From positions 1 to 64,000 of IMG/VR virus record IMGVR_UViG_3300031992_000080: a stretch of DNA of 64,000 bases; one strand, given 5' to 3'. Below the pieces are notes generated by a model that ran no database searches, was not told the DNA's origin, and saw nothing but the letters and a program-made list of their open reading frames with translations. Both the position numbers and the translations under genes were made by a program. Positions 4,900-29,952 of the stretch are shown here, one piece after another. This DNA is from a virus (Duplodnaviria > Caudoviricetes). Position 1 is the first letter of the stretch. Each line of letters begins with the position of its first letter.

Positions 4900-5096
4900 T
4901 TCACGCCCTCCTTGTCTCCCGCGCTGCGGTTCCGCGCGGTCCCGATGTAGTTCCTGATGTCGTCGAGGCACCTGGCGCAGACGTTCTTCACGGTCGTTGC
5001 TCCCCAATGGAACGGGTGAAGTTCAATGGGGCGCAGGGCGTTCTTGTTGCGGACCTCGATGCCGCAATGGTCGCAGTAGTGTTTCGTGACGGTCAT
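4896..5096 (-). CDS. Small Zn-ribbon protein
   Basis: CDHCG...CARC. Confidence 0.65.
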   Translation of the reverse strand: MTVTKHYCDHCGIEVRNKNALRPIELHPFHWGATTVKNVCARCLDDIRNYIGTARNRSAGDKEGVK

Positions 5097-5290
5097 TTCG
5101 TTTCTCCTTTCTCCGCGCGGCTGTTCCACGCGGCGATTGCCCTGCGAATCAGCCCACGGCGGTGCAGCTGTTTGCGCTCGGCGAGCAGAAGGTCGCGAAT
5201 CTGCTCAAGCAGTTCCTCGATGTTCGTGAGACGAAATACCGTGATGTCATCGTTCGAGTGCCATCGGCCGTCGTTGATGTATTTAGGCAT
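5093..5290 (-). CDS. Small hypothetical protein
   Basis: GGAGG RBS, ATGA coupling. Confidence 0.55.
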   Translation of the reverse strand: MPKYINDGRWHSNDDITVFRLTNIEELLEQIRDLLLAERKQLHRRGLIRRAIAAWNSRAEKGETK

Positions 5291-11084: not shown

Positions 11085-11507
11085 CTAGAACGGGAGGTCT
11101 GCGGCGAGGTCCGCGGCGGCGGCGGACGGGGCCAGGTGGTCGGGAGCGGGACGGGCGGCGGAGGAGGGCGCGGACGTGGACGATGGACGGGCGGCGGGAG
11201 CGGACGCTCCGGCGCCGTCGATCCGGTGGATTTCGTGGCCGATCACGTCGACGAAGTAGCGCCCGTTCCATTCGCGGCCGCGCAGCTCTCCGTGGACGTC
11301 CACGAGGTCGCCCTCGCGCACGAGGTCGCACTTGCCGGCTTCCTTGCGCTGGAACTGGACGGCGAGGTGCAGAGGGTATTTCTCGGCGCGGTCGGTGAGG
11401 ATCATTTCGCGCTTCTGGAACTTGTCGGAAATGACTTGCAGCTCTCCGATGCGTTCGACGTAGAGCGCTTCGGCCTTGAAGGTCGCGTGGGGTTGTTCGT
11501 ATGGCAT
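11085..11507 (-). CDS. ssb: Single-stranded DNA-binding protein (DUF3127-type OB fold)
   Basis: FQKREMIL...YP..LAVQF...GDLVDVHGELRGREWNGRYF; low-complexity tail ending DLPF. Confidence 0.85.
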   Translation of the reverse strand: MPYEQPHATFKAEALYVERIGELQVISDKFQKREMILTDRAEKYPLHLAVQFQRKEAGKCDLVREGDLVDVHGELRGREWNGRYFVDVIGHEIHRIDGAGASAPAARPSSTSAPSSAARPAPDHLAPSAAAADLAADLPF

Positions 11508-11627: not shown

Positions 11628-12341
11628 TCAGAACTTGCGCAGCTTTGCGAGCCTGTGGTCGGGCGCTGTCATGGCGAGCCAGCCGCACCGCTCGACGAGG
11701 CGCGAGAGAATTCGGTCGTCGTAGCGGGACTTGATTCCGGCGGCATCGAGGTTGGTGGTGACGAGAATCTGCGCCCGCTTCTTGGCGGGGGCATCCGCCC
11801 ATTTGACGATGAAATCGCCAACGGGGTCGGTCTCGGTGCCGAAGTCCTTGCGCGGGCGGTCGGCGCCCATGTCGTCAAGAACGAACGGGACGAGGAGGTG
11901 GTGGGATTCGACGATTCCGAGGTTGCCGTGAGAACACGACACGGAGTCATATGTCTCGACGAGCGGCAGATCGTCCTCGATCCACGGATCGTCCGGACGA
12001 ACGATCTTTGTGAAGGCGAGCTTGGCAATCACGCTCGCCGCCGTTGTCTTTCCACACCCGGTCCTGCCGGTGAGGATGAGCCCTTCGATGTCGCCGGCTG
12101 CAAGGGCGAGCGCGGCGTGGCACACGCGGTCGAAGTCGGAGCCGGCCAGCTCGCGGGTGTAGCCGCCCGCGTCCAGGTCTTGGGCGATGAAGTCAAGGGG
12201 GGTCTCGGCGTCCCAGACGTGGTAGCCGTGCTCGGCCAGATACTGTCGGCGGGTCGTGCGCTCGACAGGGGCGGGAGCGGTCGCGACCTGCTTCTGCAGG
12301 CCGTCTGCGACGGCGGCGAGAGTTTCGGGAAACGTGTTCAT
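11628..12341 (-). CDS. DnaC/IstB-like helicase loader ATPase
   Basis: GRTGCGKTT Walker A; VLDDMG Walker B; VTTNL; RILSRL. Confidence 0.88.
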   Translation of the reverse strand: MNTFPETLAAVADGLQKQVATAPAPVERTTRRQYLAEHGYHVWDAETPLDFIAQDLDAGGYTRELAGSDFDRVCHAALALAAGDIEGLILTGRTGCGKTTAASVIAKLAFTKIVRPDDPWIEDDLPLVETYDSVSCSHGNLGIVESHHLLVPFVLDDMGADRPRKDFGTETDPVGDFIVKWADAPAKKRAQILVTTNLDAAGIKSRYDDRILSRLVERCGWLAMTAPDHRLAKLRKF

Positions 12342-16206: not shown

Positions 16207-16236
16207 TTGACTTCCGGCAGCCGCTGGTTGTAGTAT
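16207..16236 (+). promoter_or_regulatory. Sigma70-type rightward promoter
   Basis: TTGACT-18-TAGTAT with TG extension. Confidence 0.5.
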
Positions 16237-16303
16237 CCGCCCCGTCGCCGCAAAGCGGCGTGAATAGAAACATGTGTTGTTGCTAAAACGGCGCACAAAA
16301 GGC

Positions 16304-16339
16304 AAGCCGCCCCGGACGAGCGATCATCCGGGGCGGCTT
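16304..16339. terminator. Intrinsic terminator hairpin at the end of the early operon, possibly bidirectional
   Basis: AAGCCGCCCCGGA-10 nt-TCCGGGGCGGCTT; T-rich run on the minus side. Confidence 0.8.
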
Positions 16340-16362
16340 CCTTGTTGCGGGCTTTGTCTGGA

Positions 16363-16620
16363 TCAGCCGATGCCGTGGTAGCCCTCCCACTTTGCGGCCT
16401 CCTCCTCGGTGACCTCCTCGATCATGCGAACATGATACATGGGGTTGACGAGGTTGATCTGCCCGTATGGCGTGCCGTCCTCCCCGACCCAGACCTGGAG
16501 CCCGTAGTTCGAGGCGGGCGAGTTGCGGGTGGAGTAGACGCGGATATTCACGCCGTCGAACGTGGTGAGCACGGCTTTGTAGCGCTTGCCCATGTCAATG
16601 TCTGGAATGATCGGATTCAT
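16363..16620 (-). CDS. Hypothetical protein
   Basis: 85-aa ORF with AAGGAAG RBS. Confidence 0.7.
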   Translation of the reverse strand: MNPIIPDIDMGKRYKAVLTTFDGVNIRVYSTRNSPASNYGLQVWVGEDGTPYGQINLVNPMYHVRMIEEVTEEEAAKWEGYHGIG

Positions 16621-16662
16621 CTTGTTGCTTCCTTTGGTTTTGGTTGTTGTCGTTGCGTTCGT

Positions 16663-17004
16663 TCAGCCGAATTGCAGGCCGCGCGTGTGCAGGGCGTTGA
16701 TTGCGTAGCGGACAACATCTGCAATCCCGACCTTGTTGCGTCTGGCAATCCGTTCAATGATCTCTTTGTCTGCGTCGGACACGCAGATTGCCGTTAGTGT
16801 CCGGCGCGATTGTTGCACGGCAATCTTGCAGACCTTCTCGGATTTCTTGTCAATGATGTTGATCGCGACGCGAATGAGTCCGGCGGCGTCAGCTCCCATT
16901 TTCTGAAGTTCGTCAAAATTCGTCTTCTCGTCCGGCGAGAGGAGGAAGTTCACGTAGCGGGTCTTGGTTCGCGGTTTTGGCGTTGTTCTCATGGCGGTTT
17001 TCAT
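16663..17004 (-). CDS. Tandem RHH/CopG-like DNA-binding protein
   Basis: Two beta-helix-helix units (YVNFLLSPDEK...AGLIRVAI; AICVSDADKEIIERIA...IADVVRYAI). Confidence 0.65.
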   Translation of the reverse strand: MKTAMRTTPKPRTKTRYVNFLLSPDEKTNFDELQKMGADAAGLIRVAINIIDKKSEKVCKIAVQQSRRTLTAICVSDADKEIIERIARRNKVGIADVVRYAINALHTRGLQFG

Positions 17005-17031
17005 ATTATGTCTTTCCCCTTTCTATGTCAA
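17003..17031 (-). promoter_or_regulatory. Sigma70-type leftward promoter
   Basis: TTGACA-17-TAATAT (overlapping CATAAT). Confidence 0.6.
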
Positions 17032-17083
17032 GCGCGCCGGGGCGGCGGTTGCCCGCGCGCCCCTTGTTGCGTGCGCTTGTTGC

Positions 17084-17383
17084 TTATGACGGCGATCCGT
17101 GGAGCGGGTCTGGGCCGCTGATCTTCCGCTTGAATCCATCCCATGCTCTTTTGGCAAGCTCAGGCATGGCTTGTTGCAGGTCGGTGAAACGGACTGTGAT
17201 CGTCGGCCTACCTCCTTTGAAGTAGAGATAGACCGTCGCATCTTGCGGCCTCACCCAACAGCTCTCCGACACCTCCGGCCAACCAATCTCGTCCGGCTCT
17301 ATGTCAACTTCCGTCCCTGGTTCGTCATGCGAGAAAAGCCCAAGTTGCCCGTGCCATGTGCGGATGATTGATTTGATTTTCAT
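17084..17383 (-). CDS. Hypothetical protein
   Basis: Start MKIKSII after GGAGG. Confidence 0.65.
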   Translation of the reverse strand: MKIKSIIRTWHGQLGLFSHDEPGTEVDIEPDEIGWPEVSESCWVRPQDATVYLYFKGGRPTITVRFTDLQQAMPELAKRAWDGFKRKISGPDPLHGSPS

Positions 17384-17385
17384 GG

Positions 17386-17697
17386 TTAGTCCTCCTTGTT
17401 GTTGTTGTTGTTGTTCGTATTGAAGTTGTTGTTCGTCTGGAATTGGACATGACAATCGGCCAGTCTTTTCGTGAATAATCTCATTCGTTCTTCCGTTTCT
17501 CGTTCTCCGCACATGGAACGGACGATCATTCTGTTTCTCGGTTCTGCCGCATCCTCTCTCTGAATGGGAGCGAAATCCGCTTCCCATAGGTCTGCCGCAG
17601 AAGTCCCGACGAACATTTCGTCAAAGATTTCTCCGGCCTGTCTGAACGCAGGATCGTCACGGAAATCAAACGTCATTGTGGTTGTTGTCTTGCTCAT
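17386..17697 (-). CDS. Hypothetical protein with poly-Asn tail
   Basis: ORF; the AAC repeats also precede the next RBS. Confidence 0.6.
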   Translation of the reverse strand: MSKTTTTMTFDFRDDPAFRQAGEIFDEMFVGTSAADLWEADFAPIQREDAAEPRNRMIVRSMCGERETEERMRLFTKRLADCHVQFQTNNNFNTNNNNNNKED

Positions 17698-17954
17698 TTG
17701 CGAGTCTCCTTGTTGTGCTTCTTGTTCATGACGGCGTTCGTCTGGTCGGGCTGAAACTTGGCGAGGCAGATCGCGCGCGTCGGGATGCAGAACCGCGCGC
17801 AGTTTGAGTCCGTCCCGTGGATCATGTCGGGGCGGATTTCTGCGAGGTCTTCCGCCCGCCGCACGGCAACGGAAAATCCGTTCGCGAGGTAGATGGAGAG
17901 CTGATTTCCTTCGGGCCAGTTGGCGAGGAAGGTCTGGATGTGTTTCGGGTTCAT
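17694..17954 (-). CDS. Hypothetical protein
   Basis: AAGGAAA RBS; ATGA coupling. Confidence 0.65.
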   Translation of the reverse strand: MNPKHIQTFLANWPEGNQLSIYLANGFSVAVRRAEDLAEIRPDMIHGTDSNCARFCIPTRAICLAKFQPDQTNAVMNKKHNKETRK

Positions 17955-18022
17955 GGTTGTGGTTTCCTTTGTTGAGTGCGCCCCGCCGTCATGGCGGGGG
18001 CTTGCTTGTTGTCGGTTGCGGC

Positions 18023-18565
18023 CTAGCGGATCGGGCGTCCGTAGCAGTCCTTTCCGTCTTGCGCGGCATTCCGCGCCTTCTCAATGTCCGCGAGGTCGTC
18101 AAGCCCCCACGGGAAGGCTTCGTATGCGGCGCGCGAGACTGGGAAAAGCTCGCAGAGCTTATCTGCGGCGCAATGATAGAGGGTGCTCACGATCGCTTTC
18201 GCTTCCGTCTTTTCGTAATCGTCCGTCTCGCAAGACTGGTAGTTGTAGCATCCAAGAGCCTTGAGCAAGAAGCCGATGCCAGTAAGCCCGTTGAAGTCGG
18301 GCGCGCCATCGTTGACTTCCGCGAGGGAACCGGGCTTGATTCTGTCGCACCGGGTGTCATAGTGATACTCCGGCGCGGATTTGTTCTCGTTGTAGCGGAA
18401 ATTCACGGAGCGGTAGTTTTCGTTCCACAGAATCTGCCCGATCTGGTCTGGGTCTTCTTCGGCGCAGACGAGTTCGCCGTTGTTGTTGATTGCCCGGATT
18501 CCAAAGTGCTTCGCCGCAGAAACGAGGAAGTCAATGTGGGCTTTGCTTACGATCCATGCGCTCAT
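18023..18565 (-). CDS. Conserved mobile-element hypothetical protein
   Basis: MSAWIVS..HID.L...LW.EN..SVN.RY.E...L....Y.YQSCE pattern. Confidence 0.75.
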   Translation of the reverse strand: MSAWIVSKAHIDFLVSAAKHFGIRAINNNGELVCAEEDPDQIGQILWNENYRSVNFRYNENKSAPEYHYDTRCDRIKPGSLAEVNDGAPDFNGLTGIGFLLKALGCYNYQSCETDDYEKTEAKAIVSTLYHCAADKLCELFPVSRAAYEAFPWGLDDLADIEKARNAAQDGKDCYGRPIR

Positions 18566-18610
18566 GGTTTGTGTTCCTTTCTTTGTTGTTGGTTGTTGGT
18601 TGGGTGGTGG

Positions 18611-18853
18611 TTAGTGCTTCGGTGCGTAGAGCTTGCAGAGTTCGTTGAATTCCTCCGGCGTGAGCGGTTCGTCCGGCGCGTCCGTGTCGGTGTAGGTCAC
18701 GCCGCACTCAAGGTTCTTGAACGCGTCAACGGCGCGATCCCGCTCCTCTCCGTCCGTCCCAGCGATCCACTCCATGAGGAAAGCGCGGTATTCGCGCTTG
18801 GTCTTGAAGAGATGTTCTTGCCCGTGGGCTTTGATTCCTATTTTCTTTTTCAT
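18611..18853 (-). CDS. Hypothetical protein
   Basis: 80-aa ORF. Confidence 0.65.
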   Translation of the reverse strand: MKKKIGIKAHGQEHLFKTKREYRAFLMEWIAGTDGEERDRAVDAFKNLECGVTYTDTDAPDEPLTPEEFNELCKLYAPKH

Positions 18854-18859
18854 GTGTCC

Positions 18860-19072
18860 TTATGCGTGAAAGAGATCATCCATCGCTTCGCGGATCACCG
18901 CGTTCACCGCTTCAGAGATTGCGAGAGCGGCGCGAAATCCACCCTCGTTCATGCCGCTCAACTCGTCACCGATCATGTTGTTCATGGTTGTGATCGCACG
19001 ATCCAGTCCCTGCCAGTAGGCTTTTCTGGCGGTCTGGTCTTGTCTGATTTTTGCCTTCATTTCCGTTGTCAT
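18860..19072 (-). CDS. Hypothetical protein
   Basis: AAGGAG RBS. Confidence 0.65.
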   Translation of the reverse strand: MTTEMKAKIRQDQTARKAYWQGLDRAITTMNNMIGDELSGMNEGGFRAALAISEAVNAVIREAMDDLFHA

Positions 19073-19105
19073 GGTTTGTTCTCCTTGTTGTCTTTGTTGC
19101 GCGCC

Positions 19106-19525
19106 TTATTCGGCGGCTCGCTTGCCGAGTTCAAATCCGGCGGCTTCCCCGCGCGCGTCTTTCCACCGCCCGACAACCTCCGCGAGTTCGTCCTTGTTGG
19201 TGACGAGTTCGCCCCAGAAGTAGACGCGGCTTGCGCTTGCGTTCGCTTCAATGTTGAGCGCGTCAAAGTAGGCTACGCGGTCGGGACTGTCCAGATTGTA
19301 TGGGTCAAGCCCCGCTTCCTCTGCGACCTTGTAGGCGGCATTGAGCGCGAGATCGTTAAAGAGCGCGTTGCCGACGGCATCGTAAGGCGGCGGGAATTCC
19401 TCTAGTTTCTCCGCGACGAGATCGGGCGTAATGTCCCCGCCCCATGCGCGCGCCCATTCATCAAGCGCGGCGGTGTCCTCACGCCCCAAGCCGAGGGCGA
19501 GACTGATTGCGGTTTTCGTGTCCAT
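19106..19525 (-). CDS. Acidic hypothetical protein
   Basis: AAGGAG RBS; D/E-rich. Confidence 0.7.
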   Translation of the reverse strand: MDTKTAISLALGLGREDTAALDEWARAWGGDITPDLVAEKLEEFPPPYDAVGNALFNDLALNAAYKVAEEAGLDPYNLDSPDRVAYFDALNIEANASASRVYFWGELVTNKDELAEVVGRWKDARGEAAGFELGKRAAE

Positions 19526-19580
19526 TGTTCTTCTCCTTGTTGTTCTGCCGCGCGGGATGTTGGCGGCGTTTGTTGTTGTT

Positions 19581-19643
19581 GACTTCCCGCGACACGCCCC
19601 TGCGTGTTTCGGCGCGTAGTCGGCGCGCCATCATCGGGCGGGA
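19581..19643 (-). ncRNA. Hammerhead ribozyme, type I topology, variant core
   Basis: 5'-UCCCGC CCGAUGA U GGCGCG CCGACUA CGCGCC GAA ACACGC AGGG GCGUGU C GCGGGA AGUC; three 6-bp helices, GUC site at 19591/19590, loop II GACU complementary to 3' AGUC. Confidence 0.8.
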
Positions 19644-19658
19644 GGGGCGTATCGTGTG

Positions 19659-21176
19659 CTAGGCGGCAAGGCTCCTTTCCAGTTGCTTGCGGTGTTTGCG
19701 GAACAGTTCGGCAAGTCTCTGCGCAACTTCGCGCGCGTCTGCGGGCGGCGTTGTGTTCTTTCGGGCGTAGCATTGCTTCACCTTCCATCCGTCCCCGATC
19801 TCAATGTCCACTCGCCCTTCGTCCTTGCCAGCAAGGGCGAGACACACGCAGTTTTGCGCGGCCATGTTCGCGGAGTAGGATCCGCCGCCAATGCAGTTGC
19901 CCATGTTGTTTCCTTCGCGCAAGAATTCATCCTGCGAGGTGAGCCAGACGATCTGCCAGTCTCCGAGATTGAGCTTATTTTCGTTCTTCTGGACAAGCGC
20001 GCGAAGCTTCTCCACGAATTCCGCGATCAGCGCGTCCCGCTCCGCTTGCGTCCGCGCGTAGATTGCGCGTTGCTTTTCAAGCTCCTTCTCCCTGCGCGCG
20101 TTCGCACGCGCCCATTCGCGCTCCCGCCGCCGCATTTCGCGCATCTGCTTCTTGTGGCGAATGCGTTCCGCTTTCTTGCGCGCTTCGTAGAACGCGGCGA
20201 AGTCGGTCGGGTAGGCGGTGCAACGGGCGCGCAGGTCAAGCCCTTCAAGCTTCGCGTTCGTCATGGCTTCGCAATAGCGCCCCGCGTCAATGCCGTGCTT
20301 CACGCAGTAGGCGTAGGCGGCGCGGATCGGGATTTCGGTCGGGCGAGACTGCCGGACGGCGGAGAAGAACACGCGCGGCGCGTTCCTTGCGCGTTCGCGC
20401 TCCTCCACATCCGCAAGGGTGCGCTTCCCGCTCCGGCTCATCCACACTAGATCGTTCCAGTTGTAGCGCGTGGCGAGTCCGGGATTCTGGATCAGCAGTT
20501 TCATCAGCACCTTGTTGCGGGCGAGTTCCGCACATTTCTTCGGGTTGCGGACGGGAGAAAAGCGGTAGGCGTTGAAGAGTCCGGCCTTGACAAGAAGCTC
20601 GGTCTTCGGGTCTTTGGCGTAGGCGTAGAGGATTTCCGCCAGTTGCTTTGCGTAGTTCGGGCAGTAGTTAGGCCAATGCTCCGTTGCGAGGAGCGCGGGA
20701 TCATCTGCCGCAAGCGGCTTCCACCCGCAGTAGCGGTAGCGGGAGCGGGCGAGGAGGTCTGCGCGGGCGAGGCAGTCGGACGGCAAGGCCATCGTCACGC
20801 CGTTCCAATCAAACCAGTTGTCCTCATCATCTTCGCGCCACGCCTGGTGGCAATAGTAGCCGGAGCAAGTCTGGTAGATGTTGTGCTTCGTGTTGTAGGC
20901 AACATTCCAGTCCACACACCAACCCGCAATCCCCTTCCAGTTGAGATCGTGGATGTAGATTCTGCCCTTCGCCGGGTTGAATTCGGCAATGGGCTTGACC
21001 TCCTTCTCTCCCCTGCGGCTTGCGACCGTGACGAGTTCCAGTCCGTCACGCCCCACCTTGCGGAAAAGGGTTGTGAAGATCGTTGTCCTGCTTTTGTCGG
21101 GAATCTTGACTTTCTCCCGATATTCGCGCGCCGCTTTCGTGACGGCGCGCAGTTCGGTCTTGTTGAGTTTCTTCAT
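19659..21176 (-). CDS. pcfJ: PcfJ-like protein
   Basis: C-terminal WLTSQDEFLREGNNMGNCIGG.Y...IEI...W.V.Q...R.N; paired with PcfK. Confidence 0.85.
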   Translation of the reverse strand: MKKLNKTELRAVTKAAREYREKVKIPDKSRTTIFTTLFRKVGRDGLELVTVASRRGEKEVKPIAEFNPAKGRIYIHDLNWKGIAGWCVDWNVAYNTKHNIYQTCSGYYCHQAWREDDEDNWFDWNGVTMALPSDCLARADLLARSRYRYCGWKPLAADDPALLATEHWPNYCPNYAKQLAEILYAYAKDPKTELLVKAGLFNAYRFSPVRNPKKCAELARNKVLMKLLIQNPGLATRYNWNDLVWMSRSGKRTLADVEERERARNAPRVFFSAVRQSRPTEIPIRAAYAYCVKHGIDAGRYCEAMTNAKLEGLDLRARCTAYPTDFAAFYEARKKAERIRHKKQMREMRRREREWARANARREKELEKQRAIYARTQAERDALIAEFVEKLRALVQKNENKLNLGDWQIVWLTSQDEFLREGNNMGNCIGGGSYSANMAAQNCVCLALAGKDEGRVDIEIGDGWKVKQCYARKNTTPPADAREVAQRLAELFRKHRKQLERSLAA

Positions 21177-21186
21177 GTCGCACCTC

Positions 21187-22188
21187 CTAGAAATCAAAGA
21201 GGGTCATCTGCGGGTCGGGCTTCTTCGGCGCGGGCTTCGGGATCACGGGCGGTTTGTAGTTGCCGGACGGCGGTGTGTAGGGCTTGGGCTTCGGCGTCGG
21301 CTTCCACTCGCAGTTGAGAGAGTCCTCCTCAAAGTAGTGCATGAGTTCGCAGAAAACATCCTCGTCCTCCGCGAAGTATCCGCGCGCGCCCTTCTCGGCT
21401 TTTTTCTGCGCCCATTCGTAGAGGTGATTCGCCGCGCCTTGCAGTGTTTTCTTTCCCTCTATCTTCGCGCGGAGTTCTGGGCTTGCGTTCTTGTCAAAGT
21501 AGGCTTTCAGCCGCTCTTCCATGTGGTTCGTGGCTTTCCACTCCCACTTCGGCGGCTTCTCCTCCTCCGGCTTGTCGGCGGGCTTCTCGTCCGTCTTGTC
21601 CTCGCCGTCCTTGTTGTCCTCCGGCTCGGCGGGATCGGGCGGCGTGTTCTCGCCGTCCGGCTTCTCGGCGGTCTTCTCTTCGCCGCCGAAAACGGACGGG
21701 AGGTTTCTCTGCAACGCCGTGTCAAGAGAGATGTCTCCCCGCTCGTCATTGGTCAGCGGACGGATTGCGACTTCGCCGGAGTCAAGGATCGTCACTTTGT
21801 CCTCGCCGTCCGTGCAGTAGTCCCGCTCGTTCTCGTCATCGTAGACTCGCCATCCGTGCGACTCCGCGACCTCCATCCAGTTGCTCGGCGTGTCCCCGCT
21901 CTCGTTGAGCCAGTCCGCAAAATCCTGCAAGGTCTTGATCTCCGGCGCGGTCTTGTTGTCGGTCTGCGGCGCGTTCTGCGCTTCGGGCGCGGGCGCGGTA
22001 TGCTCCGGCTCGGCGGCGGGTTTGGCGGGCGCGGGTTCGTCCGGCTTCTCGTCCGGCTTCGGCGCGTCCGTGGTCTGCGGCGCGGGCTTCATCTGCGCCA
22101 TCATCTGCGAGACTGCGGCGAGTTTCGCCGCCATCTCTTGTTTCATGCGCTCAAGCTCCGCAAGCGCGTTCTGTGCTTCTTCGTTCAT
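21187..22188 (-). CDS. pcfK: PcfK-like (AcrIIA9 family) protein with long N-terminal extension
   Basis: KKTLQGA..HLYEWAQKKA.KG.....DEDVF..LMHYFEED...QMTLFDF. Confidence 0.8.
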   Translation of the reverse strand: MNEEAQNALAELERMKQEMAAKLAAVSQMMAQMKPAPQTTDAPKPDEKPDEPAPAKPAAEPEHTAPAPEAQNAPQTDNKTAPEIKTLQDFADWLNESGDTPSNWMEVAESHGWRVYDDENERDYCTDGEDKVTILDSGEVAIRPLTNDERGDISLDTALQRNLPSVFGGEEKTAEKPDGENTPPDPAEPEDNKDGEDKTDEKPADKPEEEKPPKWEWKATNHMEERLKAYFDKNASPELRAKIEGKKTLQGAANHLYEWAQKKAEKGARGYFAEDEDVFCELMHYFEEDSLNCEWKPTPKPKPYTPPSGNYKPPVIPKPAPKKPDPQMTLFDF

Positions 22189-22221
22189 GGGGTTTTGCCC
22201 TTGTTGTTGTTCTTGTTGTGT

Positions 22222-22307
22222 GGCTTGCCATCATCGGCGCGCGGGTTGCCGTCCCTGCGCGGACACGCGCCCCGCCGGAAAGGACGGCGGCGGGGGCGTG
22301 TTTCGGC
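22222..22307 (-). ncRNA. Hammerhead ribozyme, type II topology, same variant core
   Basis: 5'-GCC GAA ACACGC[CCCCGCCG..CGGCGGGG]C GCGUGU C CGCGC A GGG ACGGCAA CCC GCGCG CCGAUGA U GGC; GUC site at 22262/22261; helix II only 3 bp. Confidence 0.65.
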
Positions 22308-22311
22308 TTGT

Positions 22312-23148
22312 CTACTTCGCCGCCCCGCCCTCCTTCTTCTCGCCGTTGTTGCGGATCGCGTCTTGGATCGTCTGCGGCGCGCCCTTCGGCGTGTGCGCGC
22401 CGGAAATGATCTGGAAGATGCCGTCGCGCTCCTCGGTGCGCGTCTCCTCCATCTCCATCAACTCCCCGCCGTTGGCTGTGAGCTTCGCCGCGTCCTCGTC
22501 CCCCATCGTCATGCACTCAACGATGGCGGCGAGACTGGCGCGCGTCCATTGCTCTGCGATTACGCCGACGAGCGCAAGGTCGGGAATGCTCGTTGTCTCG
22601 CCATCCGCGTTGTGTCCGGCGAACACCGCCGCGCCCGCAATCAGCCGTTCGCGTCCGGCGTTGAGGAAAAGCGCAGTTCCGGCGGGGTTGACTCCAGAAA
22701 CATCCCAGAATGCGTCCGCAATCCACATATCGCAACCGCGCCCGATGTCAACGCGATCAATCATCGCGCCGATATGTCCGCGCAAGTGTTCGTAGGTCTG
22801 CCCGCGCGAGACTGCCCACAACTCCAAGCGCGTCTCCGCGTCTCCGTCCTTGTTCTCCGTGAACGGAAACGCGGTGAGGAGCAGGGCTTTCTCGTTGTCT
22901 TCCGTCCGCAGGGGATGCCCCTGCGCGAAAGTCCATGCGATTGCGGTCTTGAAAAAGTCCTTGCCGACAAGCCGCGCTTGGATTGCGCGGCAACGCGGAT
23001 CGTGCGCGTCCGGGTTTTGAAGAATTTCGGAGGTGTAGATTTCGCGCCGGAGCAAGCGCGGCGCGTTGTTGTTGTTGTTTTTCATGGCGTTTTGCCTTTC
23101 GGGGTTGGGGTTTCGTGAAAATGGTGGGATTGCGGTATTGCGGCACAT
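22312..23148 (-). CDS. DUF3846-like protein
   Basis: HLRGHIGAMIDRVDI....DMWI......VNPAGT.L......IAG.AVF.GHNADGETTSIPD. Confidence 0.6.
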   Translation of the reverse strand: MCRNTAIPPFSRNPNPERQNAMKNNNNNAPRLLRREIYTSEILQNPDAHDPRCRAIQARLVGKDFFKTAIAWTFAQGHPLRTEDNEKALLLTAFPFTENKDGDAETRLELWAVSRGQTYEHLRGHIGAMIDRVDIGRGCDMWIADAFWDVSGVNPAGTALFLNAGRERLIAGAAVFAGHNADGETTSIPDLALVGVIAEQWTRASLAAIVECMTMGDEDAAKLTANGGELMEMEETRTEERDGIFQIISGAHTPKGAPQTIQDAIRNNGEKKEGGAAK

Positions 23149-23168
23149 GGCTTGCAGGCTCCTTGTTG

Positions 23169-23249
23169 CTAGTTGTTGATCCCTGCGGCGGCGGCGTGTA
23201 GAATCACGGCGGCGGCGGTGTAGATTGCGGCGAGAATCGCGGCTTTCAT
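23169..23249 (-). CDS. 26-aa hydrophobic peptide
   Basis: Manual translation MKAAILAAIYTAAAVILHAAAAGINN; fills an intergenic gap; A/C-rich leader. Confidence 0.4.
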   Translation of the reverse strand: MKAAILAAIYTAAAVILHAAAAGINN

Positions 23250-23273
23250 TGTGTTGTTCGTGTTGGTTTCCGG

Positions 23274-24053
23274 TTAGTCCGCATAGTCCTCTGTGTAGGT
23301 CTGCGCGGGGTTGTAGATGTTCGTGCGGTCGGCGTAGTGGCTCGGCTTGGTGCGGAAATATCCGCTTTCGTCCGGGCGGCGCGTGATCGGCTTCGCGCCC
23401 GCTTTGATTCGGTATCCGAACGGGCTAGACGGATCGGGAATCGGGCGGACGCGCGCTTGCATGAATCCGCATTCTTCGCCCGTCTTTTCTAGCTCAATCA
23501 GAGAAAGGCTCTTGCCCGTATCCTTCAAAACGCCGTAGAAGTCATAAAAAGTCATGGAATAATGGAAGTGCGAAACAATCACTTTGCCCGCAAGGCTCTT
23601 CGCCTTGTTGCCGTCCGTCTCCGGCGGCTCTGGCGGCGTGTTCTTCGGCTCGGTGGCGCGCTCGTCCTTGTTGCGTTCTGGCGCGGGATCGTGCGGCGGC
23701 GTGTTCTCCGGCTTCCCTTCGCGTGCGTCCGGCGTGTCTGTAAATAAGTCCATTTGCCCGGCGCGCGGAAAAATCTCGGTCTGCCAAGTGCAAGGCGCGA
23801 ATCCCGCGCGCGTCTGGCGCGCGAGACTGCCGCTTGCGATTGCGGCGCGCAAGTAGTCAGCTTGTGCGTCCGTGAATTCCGGCGCGCGGTGCGTCTGCGC
23901 GTGCTTATCTGGCATGGGGTTGCCGAAAAGATCAACGGCGGCGGCGGGCGTGGTGTGCGCGCTCGTCGGCGTTGTCGCAATGGCGGCTTGGATTGCGGCG
24001 GGGTTCAAGGCGGCGGCTATTGCGGCGGCAATGGCGGCTTGCGTGGTCTGCAT
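23274..24053 (-). CDS. Hypothetical protein (Ala-rich N-terminus, SH3-like-looking C-terminal domain)
   Basis: GKVIVSHFHYSMTFYDFYGVLKDTGKSL.L.EL. Confidence 0.7.
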   Translation of the reverse strand: MQTTQAAIAAAIAAALNPAAIQAAIATTPTSAHTTPAAAVDLFGNPMPDKHAQTHRAPEFTDAQADYLRAAIASGSLARQTRAGFAPCTWQTEIFPRAGQMDLFTDTPDAREGKPENTPPHDPAPERNKDERATEPKNTPPEPPETDGNKAKSLAGKVIVSHFHYSMTFYDFYGVLKDTGKSLSLIELEKTGEECGFMQARVRPIPDPSSPFGYRIKAGAKPITRRPDESGYFRTKPSHYADRTNIYNPAQTYTEDYAD

Positions 24054-24073
24054 GGCGGGCGTTCCTTTCCGGG

Positions 24074-24496
24074 CTAGGCGGTGGCTCCGTCCGTGAAGCG
24101 GAGAATGTCGGCGGCGCGCTCGTCAAGTCTCGCGGCGCGGTTCACTTTGTCTGCGGCGTTCTGCGCGTCTGTGCATTCCGCCAAAACGAAAGCACCGGGC
24201 GCGGGGGCGGTGTTGTATCCCGTCCGGTCGCGGTCAATGATGAGATACACGGCGAAACGCGCGCCGGAATCGGGCGCGGTGTGCTCTGGCTCAATGGTGG
24301 CGGTTGTCCGCGTGCCGTCCGTGTGGTAGTCCCGGAATCCGGCAAGGTCGGCGGCGAGTTCGTCCGGCGTGGCGGCGGCGAGTTCGCGCGCGTATTGCGT
24401 GGCAATCTCCTCGCAAAACTGCGCGCGGGCGGCGCGGCGTTTCGTCTCCGGCGAGACTGCGGCGGGCGTGGGCGTGGGCGTGGCGGTGGTGTTCAT
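24074..24496 (-). CDS. Hypothetical protein
   Basis: GAAAGG RBS. Confidence 0.65.
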   Translation of the reverse strand: MNTTATPTPTPAAVSPETKRRAARAQFCEEIATQYARELAAATPDELAADLAGFRDYHTDGTRTTATIEPEHTAPDSGARFAVYLIIDRDRTGYNTAPAPGAFVLAECTDAQNAADKVNRAARLDERAADILRFTDGATA

Positions 24497-24527
24497 GGTT
24501 TTTTGCCTTTCGTGTTGTTCTGGTGGA

Positions 24528-25385
24528 TCAAGCGGCGGTTGCGTGGCGGATGATTCTGGAAATTCCGGATATGATTTCCGCTTGCATTTCGCGCGGGCTT
24601 GCGGTAAATGGAATGTAGATCGTTTGTGCGGGGTCTAGTCCAAGTGCCGCGCAAGCGGCGGTTGCCCCGATTGCATGGCAACGCCCGCTTGCGCTGTCAA
24701 AGTCCGAACCAGTCACGGCGTGAAGGTCTTGCAAGTCCATGTGTCCAATCCTGCGGGTCACTTCGGGGCGGGTTGCATACCATACGGCGGAGAGGTCTAG
24801 CGGTTCGCCGTGGCGTTTGGCGGGATAGTAGCTTGCAACTTCGCGGCAAGGGCGGCGGGTTTCAACGGCGTTCTCAATCCATAGGGCGGTAGAATATCCT
24901 CGGCGCTCAAGCGCCGAAACGGCGGCGGCGGCTGTCGCGCCCCGCTTCTCAAAATCAGTTAGCGGGGCGGTGCATGGGAGACAAGCGGCGAAGATGATAG
25001 TTGCAAGTTTCGCGGGGCGTGGTTGGCGGCGGCGACGCGTAAAAAAGCGCGCGTCTCCGTTTCCCGTCATAAAGTCCAGTAGGCGGGCGGGGTCTAGTGT
25101 CTCTCCGTCCTCGGCGTGTTGCCACTTCGCGCGCGTGTCCGTTCCGGTGATACCGTCTTCAATCTGGGCGGCAATCGTTTCGGCAAGGCGCGGGATTTTC
25201 GCGCTTGGCTCGTCCGTGGCGAGTGCGGGCACGGCGGCGGCAAGGGTATTTCCGTAGAAATTGCCCCTGCGGTTGCCTAGCTCGGCGGCATAGCGGGAAA
25301 TTTGGCTTGTTCCGCGCGCCTTGTCAAGCGCGTTTTGGACGAAATCGGCGGTTGCCGGGAAAATCCGTGTGAATGGTTCGGGCAT
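24528..25385 (-). CDS. vWA-like partner of the AAA+ ATPase
   Basis: G..LD..R.L......FF......TII.AAC......F...G.TA.A.V..LE..GY...LW; directly downstream of the AAA+ gene. Confidence 0.55.
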   Translation of the reverse strand: MPEPFTRIFPATADFVQNALDKARGTSQISRYAAELGNRRGNFYGNTLAAAVPALATDEPSAKIPRLAETIAAQIEDGITGTDTRAKWQHAEDGETLDPARLLDFMTGNGDARFFTRRRRQPRPAKLATIIFAACLPCTAPLTDFEKRGATAAAAVSALERRGYSTALWIENAVETRRPCREVASYYPAKRHGEPLDLSAVWYATRPEVTRRIGHMDLQDLHAVTGSDFDSASGRCHAIGATAACAALGLDPAQTIYIPFTASPREMQAEIISGISRIIRHATAA

Positions 25386-25401
25386 GGCGTTTTCTCCTAT
25401 C

Positions 25402-26535
25402 CTAGCGGGTCGCGGCGATAAATTCCTTGCGCTTCTGTTCTGGCATTCCTTCGGAAAAATCGTCCAGAATTGCGCGCGCGGTCTTGAAAAGTCCGGCGGC
25501 GGCAAGCTTTGAATAGTCAATAACCGTCCGGGTTGAAAAGAAAGTGCGGGTTATGTGGCGCGTTTCAACGGCGCGGCGCGCGGTGTCTCGCGCGTCAATA
25601 ACGGCGGCGGCTTTCGCTTCGTCTGCCGTGATGGCGAGCGCAAGGCGCTTTTCAAGTTCGGTATCGTAGTTGACTGGAAGATAGCGGAAGCGGTTTAAAC
25701 TGGCGGAGTCAAGGGCCGTCCTGCCTGTGTAGTCCTGTGTGGCTCCGTGCCCGGTGGTGTTTCCTGCGGCGAGAATGTAGGCCTGCGGATTCTTCTTGAT
25801 CCTGCCTAGGATCGGAAAGGAAAGCTCGCCGTTGGCAATTGCCGAATTGACGACAATTGCCGTTTGCGGATCGGCGGCGTCCAGTTCGTCAAATAGGAAA
25901 ACTCCGCCATTGCGATAAATGCGCGTGAATTCGCTTTCGTGGAACGAAAACGCAAGTTGCCCGTTCTCGGCGGGCTCTGGAATGAGTTTCCCGAAAATGT
26001 CGCTTGCGGAAACTTCGCCGGAAACGGAGAGACTTCCAAAACGCGCGCTTTCGTCCATGTCCGGGAAAAGGACGGCGGCGGCTTGGCGCGCAAGGTAGGT
26101 TTTTCCGCTCCCTGTCGGGCCGTAAAGGTAGCAGTTGACTCCGCAACGGATCCGCGCCAAAAGCTCGTTCAATGCGGGGTGCGCGGCTTCCCCTTCGGGA
26201 AGGGTGATTTCCTTCGGGATTTCGGGAAGGTGGAAATGCGTGATGTTCGGCGCGTGGGCGTTGGCGGCGGCTTCGGCGGCGGCGCGCGCGGCCTCGGCGG
26301 CTTCGTCCTTCGCCGTCTGGATTTCGGCGCGCAATGCGTCAATTTGCGGCGCAAGGGCGGCGGCGGCGCCGTTGGCAATGGCGGCAACGGCTCCGGCGGC
26401 GGCGGCAAGGGTCGCGGCGGGATCGGCGGGCGGGGTCTGCATGGTCTGCGGCGGGGTCTGCTTCGGGGCGGTGTCTCCGCCGAAAAGATTGCCCTGGCGC
26501 GCGGCTTCGGTAAGTTCTGCAATGGTGGTGTTCAT
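25402..26535 (-). CDS. MoxR/CbbQ/CobS-like AAA+ ATPase
   Basis: GPTGSGKT, LFDELDAAD, AAGNT.G.GA..DY.GR..LD.ASL.RF. Confidence 0.9.
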   Translation of the reverse strand: MNTTIAELTEAARQGNLFGGDTAPKQTPPQTMQTPPADPAATLAAAAGAVAAIANGAAAALAPQIDALRAEIQTAKDEAAEAARAAAEAAANAHAPNITHFHLPEIPKEITLPEGEAAHPALNELLARIRCGVNCYLYGPTGSGKTYLARQAAAVLFPDMDESARFGSLSVSGEVSASDIFGKLIPEPAENGQLAFSFHESEFTRIYRNGGVFLFDELDAADPQTAIVVNSAIANGELSFPILGRIKKNPQAYILAAGNTTGHGATQDYTGRTALDSASLNRFRYLPVNYDTELEKRLALAITADEAKAAAVIDARDTARRAVETRHITRTFFSTRTVIDYSKLAAAGLFKTARAILDDFSEGMPEQKRKEFIAATR

Positions 26536-26561
26536 GGTGTCGGGGGTGGTTGGTTGGGTGG

Positions 26562-26924
26562 TTAGGCAATCTCCATTTGTTCGGGAGCGATCCTTGCTAG
26601 AAAGCGCGTCCACGCGCAAGCGGCCGGGAATCGTCCGGCGGCGTGGGCAAGGGGGTTTGATTCGGCACGCGCGCAAGCCGCGCGCAATGCGTCAAGCCGT
26701 CCCCTTTGCATTGCGTCTTTAATTTCGTCAACTTCGCGGACAAGGGCGGCGCGCGCGGCGTTCGGGCGCGGCACGGAAAAAGCGGCGTTCTCGCAAGCGC
26801 GCGCCGCTTCCCGGTAGATCGCAAAAACATAGTAGGCGCGAGAGATTCGCGCGGGGGTGGCTGTCTGCACAAGCCGCTTTTTATGTTCGCGGCGCGCGGC
26901 GTTCGGGCGGGGGGTGGCGTTCAT
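26562..26924 (-). CDS. Hypothetical protein, first gene of the leftward early operon
   Basis: GAAAGG RBS just downstream of the promoter. Confidence 0.6.
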   Translation of the reverse strand: MNATPRPNAARREHKKRLVQTATPARISRAYYVFAIYREAARACENAAFSVPRPNAARAALVREVDEIKDAMQRGRLDALRAACARAESNPLAHAAGRFPAACAWTRFLARIAPEQMEIA

Positions 26925-26956
26925 GGTTGGTGCCTTTCGTGGTCTTGCGGGGCGGT

Positions 26957-26985
26957 AGTCTAGCATAGTCCGCTTTTTATGTCAA
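26957..26985 (-). promoter_or_regulatory. Strong sigma70-type leftward (early) promoter
   Basis: TTGACA-17-TAGACT with TG extension. Confidence 0.75.
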
Positions 26986-26999
26986 GCGTTTTTTTATGT

Positions 27000-28250
27000 C
27001 TTTTTTTCTGCGTTGTTCTTTCTTGCGAAACGCCCCTTGTAGAGACTCTTTTCGTAAAATGCCGTTTTCCATTTTAGCCTTTATTCATGGGCTTTTCATG
27101 CGTTCTCGCCTTGCGTTTTCGCGCGTCTCAATCATGCGCGTTTTTCGTAGTTCTAGGCGTGTCTAACAATCGGCTTTTTAGCTTCGTCTAACATAGCTAA
27201 ATCCCGCTAAATAGTAAATCTGTCTTTACAATTGTTTGGCGCGTCTAAAGCATGGTCTGGCGGGGTTCGTCCGGCGGGGTCTGCTGGCGTTCCGGCGGGG
27301 CGGTTCTCTCGCTCGTTCGTCCAGCGTTCTCCCCTCCCCTCGCGCCGGGGAAGGTGGGAGCGGGGAAGGGGGTAGGGGGTAGGGGCGGGGGGTGGATGGG
27401 GGTAGGTAGCAGGGCAACGGCAACGGATCGGAGTAGGCGTGTAGGTAGGTAGGTAGGTAGGGCGGTAGCAGGGTAGCAGGTGGCGCGCGCGGGGACGGCA
27501 ACGGCTGGATCGGGGCGGGGAGATGGGGCAAGGCTCGTCAAGGCGCGGCAAGGCTCGTCCGGGCTTCATGCGGGTTTCTGTCTAGCGGTCTGGAAGGGCG
27601 GCGGGTAGTCTGGCGGGATTGGGGGGAGGGCCGCGCGCGGTGCGGTGTGTTGGCGTTTTTCGGGGCGCGGGTCTATGTCGCATAATCCCGCATTCCGGCG
27701 CTTATAAACTCGCCATGCGTGCGGCGGATTGCGGGCGGGCGGGCGTCCGGTGGGACTGTTGCGGGCCGTCTGGGTATCCGTCCGGCCTGCCCCGTCGGGC
27801 CGTCGGGGCCGTCCGGCGGGGGTTGTTGCGGCGTTTTTAAGCCGTTTTTCGGCAAAAAACACGCCCCGCAAAATTATAAGTATTGATTTTTCAATATGTT
27901 ATGCGGATAATGGGGAGGGTTGAAAGCCTTTCTGGAAGGATCAAAGGAAGGCGCGCGGGCGGGAATGAGAAGGGAGGGGAGGACGGGCAAGGCGGGCGGC
28001 ATGGGGGAGCGGGAAGGGAGGGAGGAAGGGAGGCACGGCTACCCCGTCCCCCTCCCCGACCACACCGCCGACCGCCGCCCCGCGCGGGTCCTGCGGGGGA
28101 CTTTCTCGCACACTGAGGTCGAAGTTTGAAAAGGAGCTACTGCTTGGGACGGGTGGGTCGTGTGGGCGCACCTGCGAGGGCGCGCGCGTGCGGGTGCGAG
28201 GTTGGTGTCCGGATTTTTTTCGGGAATGGTTGCCGTGGTGGATACTGTTT
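27000..28250. other. Non-coding inter-arm region, candidate genome terminus or packaging region
   Basis: No credible ORF; AT-rich patches, G-runs at 27347-27402, (GTAG)5 at 27441-27460, palindrome TATTGA-TTTT-TCAATA at 27881-27896, purine-to-C-rich switch near 28035. Confidence 0.5.
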
Positions 28251-28254
28251 TGGC

Positions 28255-29952
28255 ATGGGGAACCAAGCGAACAGAGGGCTGCGGCGAACGGCTGCGGGGA
28301 CGCGGAAGGATCGCGTGGAGCGGTCGACGCGCGTGATTGGATACGTGCCGACGCCGACGGGGCTGCGGTTCCACAACAGCCGTGCGCTCGTGAAGGGTGC
28401 GATGGGGCCTGTTGGGAGCGGCAAGTCGGTATTCTGCTGCGAGGACATCTGGATAAAGAGCTGCACGCAGGTGCCGATGGCGCAGATCGACCCGGCGTGG
28501 GGGATGCGGGTGCGATACAGCAAGTGGCTTGTGATCCGGAACACGTATTGGGACTTGCAGCAGACGACGATCAAGACGTGGCTGGACTGGTTTCCGCAGA
28601 CGAAGATGCGGGAAAGCCAGCCGTTGGGCGGTGTTCTGGAGTTCGAGCATCCGAGCAACGAGCGGCTTCGCGCGGAGGGGCGGGAAGACGAATGCACGGC
28701 GGTGCGGATCGAGCTGGTGTTTCTGGCGCTGAACAAGGAAGAGCAGGTGCGGCACCTCAAGTCGCTGGAGGTGTCCGGGGTGTGGATCAACGAGGCGAGC
28801 GAAGTGCCGCTCAAATACGTGAGCCGTGCGTTCGAGCGAACGGGGCGTTTTCCGAGCAAGAAGGCGGGCGGGCCGTTCAAGAACCTGGGGATGATCATGG
28901 ACACGAACCCGCCGAGCGACACGGGGTGGTGGTACCAGCTTGCGGAGGTGCGGCGGCCGCAGGGCTACGAGTTCTTCCGGCAGCCGCCGGCGGTGCTGCG
29001 GCGCGAGAAGGGTGGCCGGATCTGGTACGAGCCGAACAAGGGGCAGGATCCCGGGATTCCCGCGGCGGAGAACGTGGAGAACCACAACGAGGGGTGGGAA
29101 TACTACATGCGGCAGACCCGTGACGGGGACCATGCGCGGATCAAGGTGTTCCTGATGGGGGAATACGGGACGACGGTGAGCGGAAAGGCGGTGTATCCGC
29201 AGTATTCGGACGAGGCGAACTACCTCGACGAGACGCCGGAGCCGTGGTGGGGGCTTCCGCTGTTCATGGGGACGGACTTCGGGAGGACGCCGGCGACGGT
29301 GCTTTTGCAAGTGCTTCCGTCCGGGAAGATCGTGGTTCTGGACGAGATATGCGGGGAGGACATGACGATCGGGGAGTTCTGCGAGCAGCTTCTCCTTCCG
29401 CGTCTCATCACGAAATACCGGTTTGCGGAGGGGATGCGGGTGATGAACTTCGCGGACCCGGCTGGGGCGAAGCCGAACGAGACGGACGCGCAGGGCGCGA
29501 TCTACCGGATGAACGAGCTGGGGATTCCGACGGTGCCGTGTCCGGTGACGGGCAACAGCCCGCTGCTGCGGATCGAGGCGGTCGCGAGCGCGCTTCGGCG
29601 GCGGATGGACGACGGGAGCGCGGGCCTGGTGCTTTCGCGCAACTGCCGGCGGCTGCGGGAGGGTTTTCTGGGGCGGTATTACTACAAGACGGCGGCGAAT
29701 TCGGACGCGGCGGACGAGCGCGTGGCGGCGAAGCCGGACAAGAACATGTTTTCGCACCCGCACGACGCGCTGCAATACGGGGTTTTCGGGGCGACGCACC
29801 AGAGCGGGGAATCGATGTTCGACGTGAGCGGGCGAAGCAACCGGCTGTGGGTGCCGGACGGATTCGGAGGCTACCGGCTCTCGGGCCCGGTGCCGACGGC
29901 GGGCGGCGCGTGCGGGACGGAAGCCCGCATTTCCATGGCGGGCTTCTGCTGA
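28255..29952 (+). CDS. terL: Terminase large subunit
   Basis: GPVGSGKS Walker A; GVWINEASE Walker B; DTNPP; GTDFG RNase-H motif; HPHDALQY. Confidence 0.97.
   Translation: MGNQANRGLRRTAAGTRKDRVERSTRVIGYVPTPTGLRFHNSRALVKGAMGPVGSGKSVFCCEDIWIKSCTQVPMAQIDPAWGMRVRYSKWLVIRNTYWDLQQTTIKTWLDWFPQTKMRESQPLGGVLEFEHPSNERLRAEGREDECTAVRIELVFLALNKEEQVRHLKSLEVSGVWINEASEVPLKYVSRAFERTGRFPSKKAGGPFKNLGMIMDTNPPSDTGWWYQLAEVRRPQGYEFFRQPPAVLRREKGGRIWYEPNKGQDPGIPAAENVENHNEGWEYYMRQTRDGDHARIKVFLMGEYGTTVSGKAVYPQYSDEANYLDETPEPWWGLPLFMGTDFGRTPATVLLQVLPSGKIVVLDEICGEDMTIGEFCEQLLLPRLITKYRFAEGMRVMNFADPAGAKPNETDAQGAIYRMNELGIPTVPCPVTGNSPLLRIEAVASALRRRMDDGSAGLVLSRNCRRLREGFLGRYYYKTAANSDAADERVAAKPDKNMFSHPHDALQYGVFGATHQSGESMFDVSGRSNRLWVPDGFGGYRLSGPVPTAGGACGTEARISMAGFC

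Follow-up and report, generated by a model that had tools for sequence, protein, structure and literature searches.

Genome context and candidate control signals of the operon

A leftward operon at positions 16,363 to 26,985 of a 64,000-bp window was studied by computational analysis; the window is the first 64 kb of the 76,109-bp IMG/VR virus record IMGVR_UViG_3300031992_000080 (Duplodnaviria; Caudoviricetes). The operon carries two hammerhead folds, which bracket a pcfK-pcfJ gene pair and most likely cut the transcript, and it lies in a block of DNA that is purged of restriction sites. The record was rated complete by CheckV, and no end repeats were found in the linear 76,109 bp. Among the INPHARED phages there was no match to this phage by DNA or by protein. 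The source is best explained as an uncultivated 76-kb tailed phage, and the stretch as its early leftward operon. Genes left of about 28 kb lie on the minus strand and genes to the right on the plus strand, with a flip of the AT skew at about 28 kb. The analyzed stretch is the first leftward transcription unit and adjoins a spacer of about 1.1 kb. Its main features are the following (window coordinates; ORF, open reading frame).

26986..28119, no strand: ORF-poor spacer between the divergent gene arms, about 1.1 kb, repeat-rich
26957..26985, minus strand: sigma-70-like early promoter (TTGACA, 17 nt, TG-n-TAGACT), A-rich tract upstream
22227..22307, minus strand: hammerhead site 1, type II, predicted cut after C22262
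21187..22188, minus strand: pcfK-like gene, 333 aa, PcfK-like part at residues 218-294
19659..21197, minus strand: pcfJ-like gene, 512 aa (Pfam PF14284, 2.4e-12), UAG stop at 19661-19659
19585..19643, minus strand: hammerhead site 2, type I, predicted cut after C19591
17003..17031, minus strand: internal sigma-70-like promoter (TTGACA, 17 nt, TAATAT), overlapping the first ATG of the next gene
16304..16339, minus strand: intrinsic-terminator-like hairpin, 16 bp followed by a U tract
16557..28118, no strand: restriction-site-purged block, without TCGA and nearly without GCWGC, GGWCC, ACGT, GCCGGC, CGGCCG and CCGCGG

The promoter-like site at 26957-26985 and the terminator hairpin at 16304-16339 that the initial annotation had proposed are present and are kept in the closest relative, L002. 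This 77-kb Logan contig (SRR24653714) has 84-95% identity to the operon. The early promoter is identical in L002 (315-343), the internal promoter is kept at 11357-11385, and the terminator is kept at 12051-12086 with a compensatory G-C to U-A change in its stem. About 17 co-oriented genes lie between the early promoter and the terminator. Most of the operon spacers are 6-79 nt long, CA-rich and unstructured, mostly folding at 0 kcal/mol. A single transcript across the whole operon is plausible.

For the pcfK-pcfJ pair, the assignment of PcfJ was clear, and that of PcfK was below the cut-off (Pfam PF14058, E 0.0027). The PcfK-like gene is nevertheless 39-43% identical to the PcfK-like genes that precede PcfJ in the distant relatives L005 to L008, which backs the pair as it was first named.

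Two hammerhead folds after stop codons

The two hammerhead folds that had been placed just after stop codons on both sides of the pcfK-pcfJ pair were recovered at the same cut sites. At both sites the hammerhead three-way junction is the minimum-free-energy (MFE) fold, with C17 at 22262 and at 19591. A relaxed descriptor covering three topologies found only these two sites in the genome (152 kb, both strands). In 100 dinucleotide shuffles the mean number of descriptor hits was 0.1, and 1 of the 100 reached two. Site 1 begins 4 nt after the UAG codon at 22314-22312, and site 2 begins 15 nt after the UAG codon at 19661-19659. The ribozymes occupy the two longest spacers of the operon (123 and 133 nt), and no other spacer is strongly folded.

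Both sites follow the hammerhead order of stem I, CUGANGA, stem II, GAAA, stem III, NUH and stem I, which may be read in any circular permutation. They are circular permutations of each other and have common core words of 11-12 nt as well as common stem III words. Site 1 reads GCC, GAAA, a 14-bp stem III, GUC, the cut, a stem I hairpin, CCGAUGA plus U, and GGC. Its stem II is open, with 3 bp (GCC/GGC), and its stem III begins with ACACGC/GCGUGU, as in site 2; the GGC of loop I may pair with the GCC in the tail to form a pseudoknot. Site 2 reads UCCCGC, CCGAUGA-U, GGCGCG-loop-CGCGCC, GAAA, ACACGC-AGGG-GCGUGU, C (the cut) and GCGGGA, so that stems I, II and III are UCCCGC/GCGGGA, GGCGCG/CGCGCC and ACACGC/GCGUGU, respectively. 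Here, GACU in loop II and AGUC in the 3' tail are invariant among the copies while their neighbors change, with no covariation between the two words; a pseudoknot between them is possible.

The elements G12-A13-A14, the A15.1-U16.1 pair and the NUH triplet are intact at both sites (GAAA, ACACGC...GCGUGU-C). The other core strand, for which the consensus is C3-U4-G5-A6-N7-G8-A9 with the G10.1-C11.1 pair immediately after it, is altered at both, reading C-C-G-A-U-G-A-U-G, with C at U4 and an extra U after A9.

Two other readings of these elements were rejected. On inspection, the two cut ends cannot rebuild hammerhead helix I, which speaks against a circular RNA or splicing, and stem III of site 1 is not an intrinsic terminator, since no U tract follows.

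Membership in the hammerhead family

In the Rfam search, site 1 matched Hammerhead_II (RF02276) with 23.4 bits (E 7e-4 in the genome; gathering score 37), no match to RF00163 or RF00008 was obtained at site 2, and there were no hits at the gathering level in the whole window. The site 2 orthologues of the related fragments L003 and L004, which have a canonical core, were likewise missed, indicating that members of this phage subfamily are poorly detected by the Rfam models.

Phage hammerheads from IMG/VR were gathered by their shared stem III word. Of the 121 matches listed, 48 proved to be complete hammerheads, for the most part type II and type I copies of canonical form. Two covariance models of our own, R1 (23 type II sequences) and R2 (9 type I sequences), contained no sequence of the clade studied here. 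With R1, site 1 scored 24.5 bits (E 8e-6) and its L002 copy reached an E value of 5e-7, and with R2, site 2 scored 39.8 bits (E 2e-10), just 1.2 bits under the canonical copies of L003 and L004, all of these scores being somewhat inflated by the choice of training sequences through the shared stem III word. Both window sites were top hits, and nothing else was significant in 108 kb. As judged from these comparisons, the two folds are genuine members of the hammerhead family (Rfam clan CL00010).

Conservation of the ribozymes in relatives

The search of related phages for the same co-location, suggested in the initial annotation, gave a divided answer. Both hammerheads are kept in L002, and site 2 is kept in L003 and L004, two 2-kb fragments whose PcfJ is 73-78% identical. 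The distant PcfJ homologues of L005 to L009 have short spacers around them and no hammerheads; in relatives with 32-37% identity, the pcfK-pcfJ pairs have spacers of 12-78 nt and no ribozymes. Two hits in these loci, one by the descriptor within coding sequence of L007/L008 and one by R2 at L007 2171-2221, were rejected as noise, having no core or plausible context.

Where the ribozymes are kept, their folds are conserved. Among the four copies of site 2, differences fall at N7 (U or C), in loops or in bulges, or they are compensatory. The L002 copy has an added C-G pair in stem III, and in L003 and L004 a C.A becomes G-C, closing stem II. The sole difference in the L002 copy of site 1 is the loss of a bulged A in stem I. 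The core of site 2 in L003 and L004 is the canonical CUGAUGA-G, indicating that the lineage began with an orthodox hammerhead and that C4 is derived.

The surroundings of the ribozymes differ between relatives. An extra 207-aa gene interrupts the homology with L002, which picks up again precisely where site 1 has its 5' edge, and in L004 the site 2 ribozyme and its 60-nt leader sit before a different gene. This indicates that ribozyme and leader behave as a unit that travels with, or insulates, the following gene. The exact leader word had no match in viral_contigs. The leader that would be released by site 2 (19526-19590, minus strand) repeats the 5' strand of stem I, UCCCGC, 27 nt downstream, and this repeat is kept in L002 and L004, even before the different gene of L004. 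The new 5' end could therefore fold back after cleavage.

A recurrent core with C4 and an extra U

The variant core was searched for in IMG/VR with CCGANGAUGG combined with CCGAAAC, or with CGAAAC and GUC, under stringent stem rules. Complete hammerheads made up 12 of 112 and 9 of 116 of the matches listed, with 0.37 expected from shuffles. The loci with C4 plus extra U include L149, L160, L175, L231, L247, L255, L258, L270, L290, L307 and L308, and also L321, L331, L363, L156, L165, L215, L224, L234, L236 and L243.

This core occurs in at least 21 distinct IMG/VR hammerheads, in all three topologies and with unrelated, co-varying stems. With the U4 version of the first pattern, 45 of the 118 matches listed were complete hammerheads (0.5 expected), and many of the U4 hammerheads with the extra U have CCCGC/GCGGG as stem I, as in site 2. 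C4 and U4 copies stand side by side in the arrays of L308, L363, L307 and L247, the last having six copies, one of them C4. These counts indicate that the extra U after A9 marks a large phage subfamily in which C4 is a common polymorphism. As a rough estimate, C4 makes up about one in five of this subfamily, assuming equal chance backgrounds in both scans. To judge from these sequences, the unusual core is a variant that recurs naturally among phages and not a product of decay.

Near the C4 plus extra-U hammerheads found elsewhere, there were no homologues of this operon's proteins. No paper on the combination was found in an incomplete literature search that included the supplements of Perreault et al. 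2011, which is weak evidence for novelty.

Hammerhead arrays in other phages

The R1 scan of IMG/VR gave at least 67 hits in at least 38 loci, with the arrays on one strand. There were eight copies in L050, about nine in L089, five in L066 and four in L116. Two of the operon's genes have homologues beside hammerheads of other phages. In L116, from an unrelated IMG/VR phage, a canonical array (2615-5247, minus strand) brackets a homologue of the AAA_5 ATPase (32% identity). In L087 (2939-3381, minus strand), also from an unrelated phage, a homologue of the operon's 180-aa ORFan (31% identity) has a canonical type I hammerhead directly 3' of it.

Restriction-site purge of the operon

The operon had also been described as purged of restriction-modification sites, and this was borne out by site counts, by codon usage and by the closest relative. 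TCGA occurs 484 times in the genome (about 1 per 157 bp), and none of these sites lies in the block; the gap is 11,563 bp (16556..28119), and the next-largest gap is 786 bp. GCWGC, with 197 sites in the genome, has a gap of 12,061 bp at 16217..28278. Compared with the block's own Markov expectation, the counts were 0 versus 30.5 for TCGA, 3 versus 31 for ACGT and 23 versus 77 for GGCC. Compared with the density in the rest of the genome, they were 0 versus 35 for GCWGC, 1 versus 24 for GGWCC, 0 versus 17 for GCCGGC, 1 versus 17 for CGGCCG and 0 versus 10.5 for CCGCGG. About ten different palindromes are hit by the purge, whereas GATC, CATG and TGCA, of equal composition, are not depleted in the block.

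The purge is also visible in codon choice. In the block genes, NTY codons before GAN were C-ending in 0 cases and T-ending in 51, and in other contexts they were C-ending in 277 and T-ending in 137 (P = 8e-23). Before GAN in the rest of the genome, 338 were C-ending and 52 T-ending. This avoidance by codon context indicates that selection acts on the DNA word itself.

The same restriction-site desert, slightly leaky, was found in L002. The boundaries of the purge coincide with the transcription unit plus the spacer. A profile search of three DNA methyltransferase families (PF00145, PF01555 and PF02086) found none encoded in the genome. GTAC is rare across the whole genome, with 21 sites in 76 kb.

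The spacer at 26986-28119 is C-rich on the minus strand and has G runs on the plus strand. It contains long C-run/G-run repeats, a (CTAC)n-like stretch and repeated TTAGAC-like words, and it falls within the TCGA-free block. The spacer may be a genome end, an origin, or a site related to injection or entry. The L002 contig ends inside it, at the equivalent of window position 27297, which at most suggests a genome end.

Other genes of the operon

Annotation of the operon was sparse: an AAA_5 ATPase, DUF7192, a weak DUF3846, the weak PcfK and the solid PcfJ were recognized, and the rest are ORFans. The other genes are listed below.

22312..26924, minus strand: promoter-proximal gene block, including a 120-aa ORF and two ORFans
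25402-26520, minus strand: CobS/MoxR-like AAA_5 ATPase (profile match)
24528-25388, minus strand: DUF7192 gene (profile match)
23169-23249, minus strand: 26-aa hydrophobic mini-ORF (MKAAILAAIYTAAAVILHAAAAGINN), occupying the third long operon spacer
22312-23148, minus strand: DUF3846-like gene (weak), UAG stop at 22314-22312
17084..19525, minus strand: seven small ORFan genes, 3' of site 2, with short, unstructured, CA-rich spacers
16663..17004, minus strand: 113-aa gene after the internal promoter, second half weakly RHH-like
16363..16620, minus strand: last operon gene, 85 aa, ORFan, holding the first three TCGA sites beyond the purged block

Near the end of the operon, a second promoter with a twin-RHH gene had been proposed. 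The promoter held up, being kept in L002. For the 113-aa gene that follows it, RHH_1 (PF01402) matched in the second half only and below threshold (E 0.005-0.025), the first half had no RHH_1 match, and there was no similarity between the two halves, so that the twin-RHH assignment is weak. A PDB sequence search with this gene gave no match.

Scans of viral_contigs and genome_contigs based on PcfJ gave no match. In the distant pcfK-pcfJ phage locus L005 (1339-4848), ArdC-N/MPTase-PolyVal, GmrSD-like, Lar-like and YqaJ genes lie nearby. This neighborhood is consistent with an anti-restriction or early-gene setting for pcfK-pcfJ.

Proposed transcript processing and alternative explanations

We propose that the two real hammerheads most likely cut the operon transcript and that, independently, the block was purged under early exposure to restriction. 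The probability of this reading as a whole is put at about 0.62. In detail, the ribozymes are predicted to cut the polycistronic transcript after C22262 and C19591, during transcription or soon after it. The two self-cleavages would release a 2,671-nt pcfK-pcfJ RNA, and the fragments would gain defined ends, a 2',3'-cyclic phosphate and a 5'-OH. Release of this RNA is a reasonable expectation, because the folds are conserved, belong to the hammerhead family and are encoded in sense orientation within a co-oriented operon.

The predicted product folds bear on the fate of the fragments. At site 1, the new 3' end is one nucleotide away from stem III, and at site 2 the modeled 3' fragment refolds, with its 3' end paired to upstream sequence. 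As for the 5' ends, the pcfK message would carry the stem I hairpin from its second nucleotide on, and the downstream message would begin with a GCGGGA...UCCCGC hairpin. In bacterial mRNA decay, a 5'-OH end and hairpins are expected to slow end-dependent degradation. The new ends, tucked into hairpins, would thus be protected, and ribozyme plus leader would form a portable insulator and processing cassette.

The C4 residue may slow cutting or make it conditional; speculatively, the controls would be the upstream ribosome stop, 4-15 nt away, and the competing fold at site 2. One tentative idea, on present evidence rather doubtful, is that phage hammerheads with C4 plus extra U make up a separate core class under selection, adapted to cut more slowly or only under certain conditions. 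If this is true, processing of pcfK-pcfJ would be partial or timed and not constitutive, and could be coupled, for example, to the end of translation 4-15 nt before the ribozyme or to the competing site 2 fold.

Several observations weigh against cutting by the ribozymes and against early exposure of the block. In a viroid hammerhead, U4C "considerably decreases activity in vitro" (PMC3088659). The Rfam gathering score is not reached at site 1, site 2 is without an Rfam match, and the R1 and R2 scores carry the inflation noted above. The MFE fold of the site 2 spacer in a longer context is an alternative fold that disrupts stem III; in it, ACGCCCCU (upstream, 19644-19658, minus strand, conserved) pairs with AGGGGCGU (stem III, 19592-19603, minus strand). 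Covariation events are few, as the related contigs number only four, all of them close. First entry of the purged block is hypothetical, with undefined genome ends and an L002 contig that ends near the spacer.

The alternative that survives best is that the two sites are hammerhead-derived motifs, made catalytically dead or nearly dead by U4C, that now serve as structured spacers: stabilizers of mRNA, targets of host RNases, or conserved linkers for recombination between gene modules. The location of both sites at mosaic junctions with relatives, the lowered activity of U4C in vitro (PMC3088659), the competing fold at site 2 and the sub-threshold Rfam score of site 1 speak for it. Random decay, however, would not be expected to change the same single position at both sites and to leave all other core positions and the three stems intact at both sites and in L002. 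The core with C4 and the extra U moreover recurs in many unrelated phage hammerheads with co-varying stems, C4 copies adjoin U4 copies in the same arrays, and the viroid with U4C was still infectious (PMC3088659). Loss of catalysis is therefore considered unlikely.

Another explanation concerns the restriction-site desert, which would come from a foreign origin of the block, or from a compositional or codon quirk, and would be unrelated to entry order. In its favor, the block forms a mosaic when set against L002 and is a little poorer in GC (0.60 versus 0.64), and undefined genome termini leave room for this explanation. It does not agree with the undepleted words of the same composition (GATC, CATG and TGCA), with a codon-level avoidance that is specific to context (0/51 C-ending) or with the number of palindromes affected, about ten. 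The edges of the desert match the transcription unit plus spacer, and the purge persists in L002. We regard this explanation as improbable. Chance matches in GC-rich spacers, where short stems form easily and where a lenient descriptor has a non-trivial background on pre-selected pattern matches, have a negligible probability as the source of the two hammerhead-like folds, given 0.1 hits in genome shuffles versus 2 observed, common 11-12-nt core words, conservation with compensatory changes and detection by the independent models R1 and R2.

Self-cleavage of the transcript and early restriction exposure of the block thus remain the preferred reading, as separate adaptations. The initial annotation had combined the purge, the two hammerheads bracketing the pcfK-pcfJ pair, and the second promoter with its twin-RHH gene in one transcript. 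In 12 other hammerhead arrays there was no significant local loss of 4-bp palindromes. Given that other arrays lack a purge and that the distant pcfK-pcfJ pairs are free of ribozymes, ribozymes, purge and pcfK-pcfJ pair look independent, and a single system is not supported. The ribozymes and the purge are read as two independent adaptations, and no mechanistic link between them was found. For the purge, the proposed route is through synonymous changes, in a block that would meet host restriction before protective early functions act. By analogy with the T5 first-step-transfer region or a T7-like leading region, the purged block would be the first-entering DNA. For an uncultivated phage, the desert would then predict the part of the genome that is first to enter, and it marks the block genes, including pcfK and pcfJ, as candidate early anti-defense functions.

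Comparison with known systems

The combination had been presented as undescribed, which does not hold for its principles: hammerheads flanking phage genes (PMC3088659) and site-free first-entering DNA (PMC10644984, PMC12455610) are both known. Perreault et al. 2011 described prophages in which several hammerheads border single genes or blocks of genes, and they proposed a role in processing long phage transcripts (PMC3088659), and a 2019 review restated this role as an unproven hypothesis, noting that "additional work is needed" (PMC6765202). The clustered hammerheads of phages and prophages (PMC3088659) share with the present sites the fold and core, a GUC cut site, a stem II that is short and open, and a candidate pseudoknot between loop and tail. 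They are likewise intergenic, on the sense strand of operons, with proposed cutting into gene- or operon-length mRNAs. Here, in contrast, both copies have C at U4 plus the extra U, the topologies are permuted with shared words, just two copies bracket pcfK-pcfJ, and the scores stay below Rfam gathering. The ribozyme operon is thus a modest example of a known hypothesis, and its variant core is recurrent.

The likeness to the early mRNA of T7, which is processed by RNase III, lies in a polycistronic early transcript that is cut at structured spacers into stable, hairpin-ended messages. The T7 sites, however, are substrates of a host enzyme, whereas here the spacer itself would catalyze the cut, leaving 5'-OH and cyclic phosphate ends. 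In RiboJ-type synthetic insulators, a hammerhead 5' of a gene removes upstream RNA of variable sequence, and the leader that is left is constant and has a hairpin at its 5' end. RiboJ is engineered, and this locus would be its equivalent in nature.

An extra residue after A9 is another known variant of viroid hammerheads. The two deviations seen here, U4C and an extra nucleotide after A9, are the same as in viroids, where each has been reported singly as compatible with function (work cited in PMC3088659). The difference is that both are combined here, in a DNA phage, and that the combination recurs in at least 21 IMG/VR phage hammerheads.

The function of bacterial and phage hammerheads is still debated, and this locus is a clean case for its study. 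It offers two topologies with the same variant core, candidate promoters and a candidate terminator, and predicted hairpin-protected ends, and the natural U4 and C4 orthologues are a ready-made comparison.

For the purge, the closest known systems are the first-entering regions of other phages. In T5 and BF23, restriction works only if sites lie inside the first-step-transfer region (PMC10644984), and in the Autographiviridae the leading region is first-entering DNA free of restriction sites (PMC12455610). In both, restriction sensitivity is set by the sites in the first-entering DNA, and this region holds early genes for host takeover or anti-defense and adjoins a long non-coding stretch, features that the block described here would share. 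The present record differs in having no terminal repeat and in a purge that is unusually broad (about ten palindromes) and sharp (0/484 TCGA). The restriction-site purge is a very clean instance of this known strategy.

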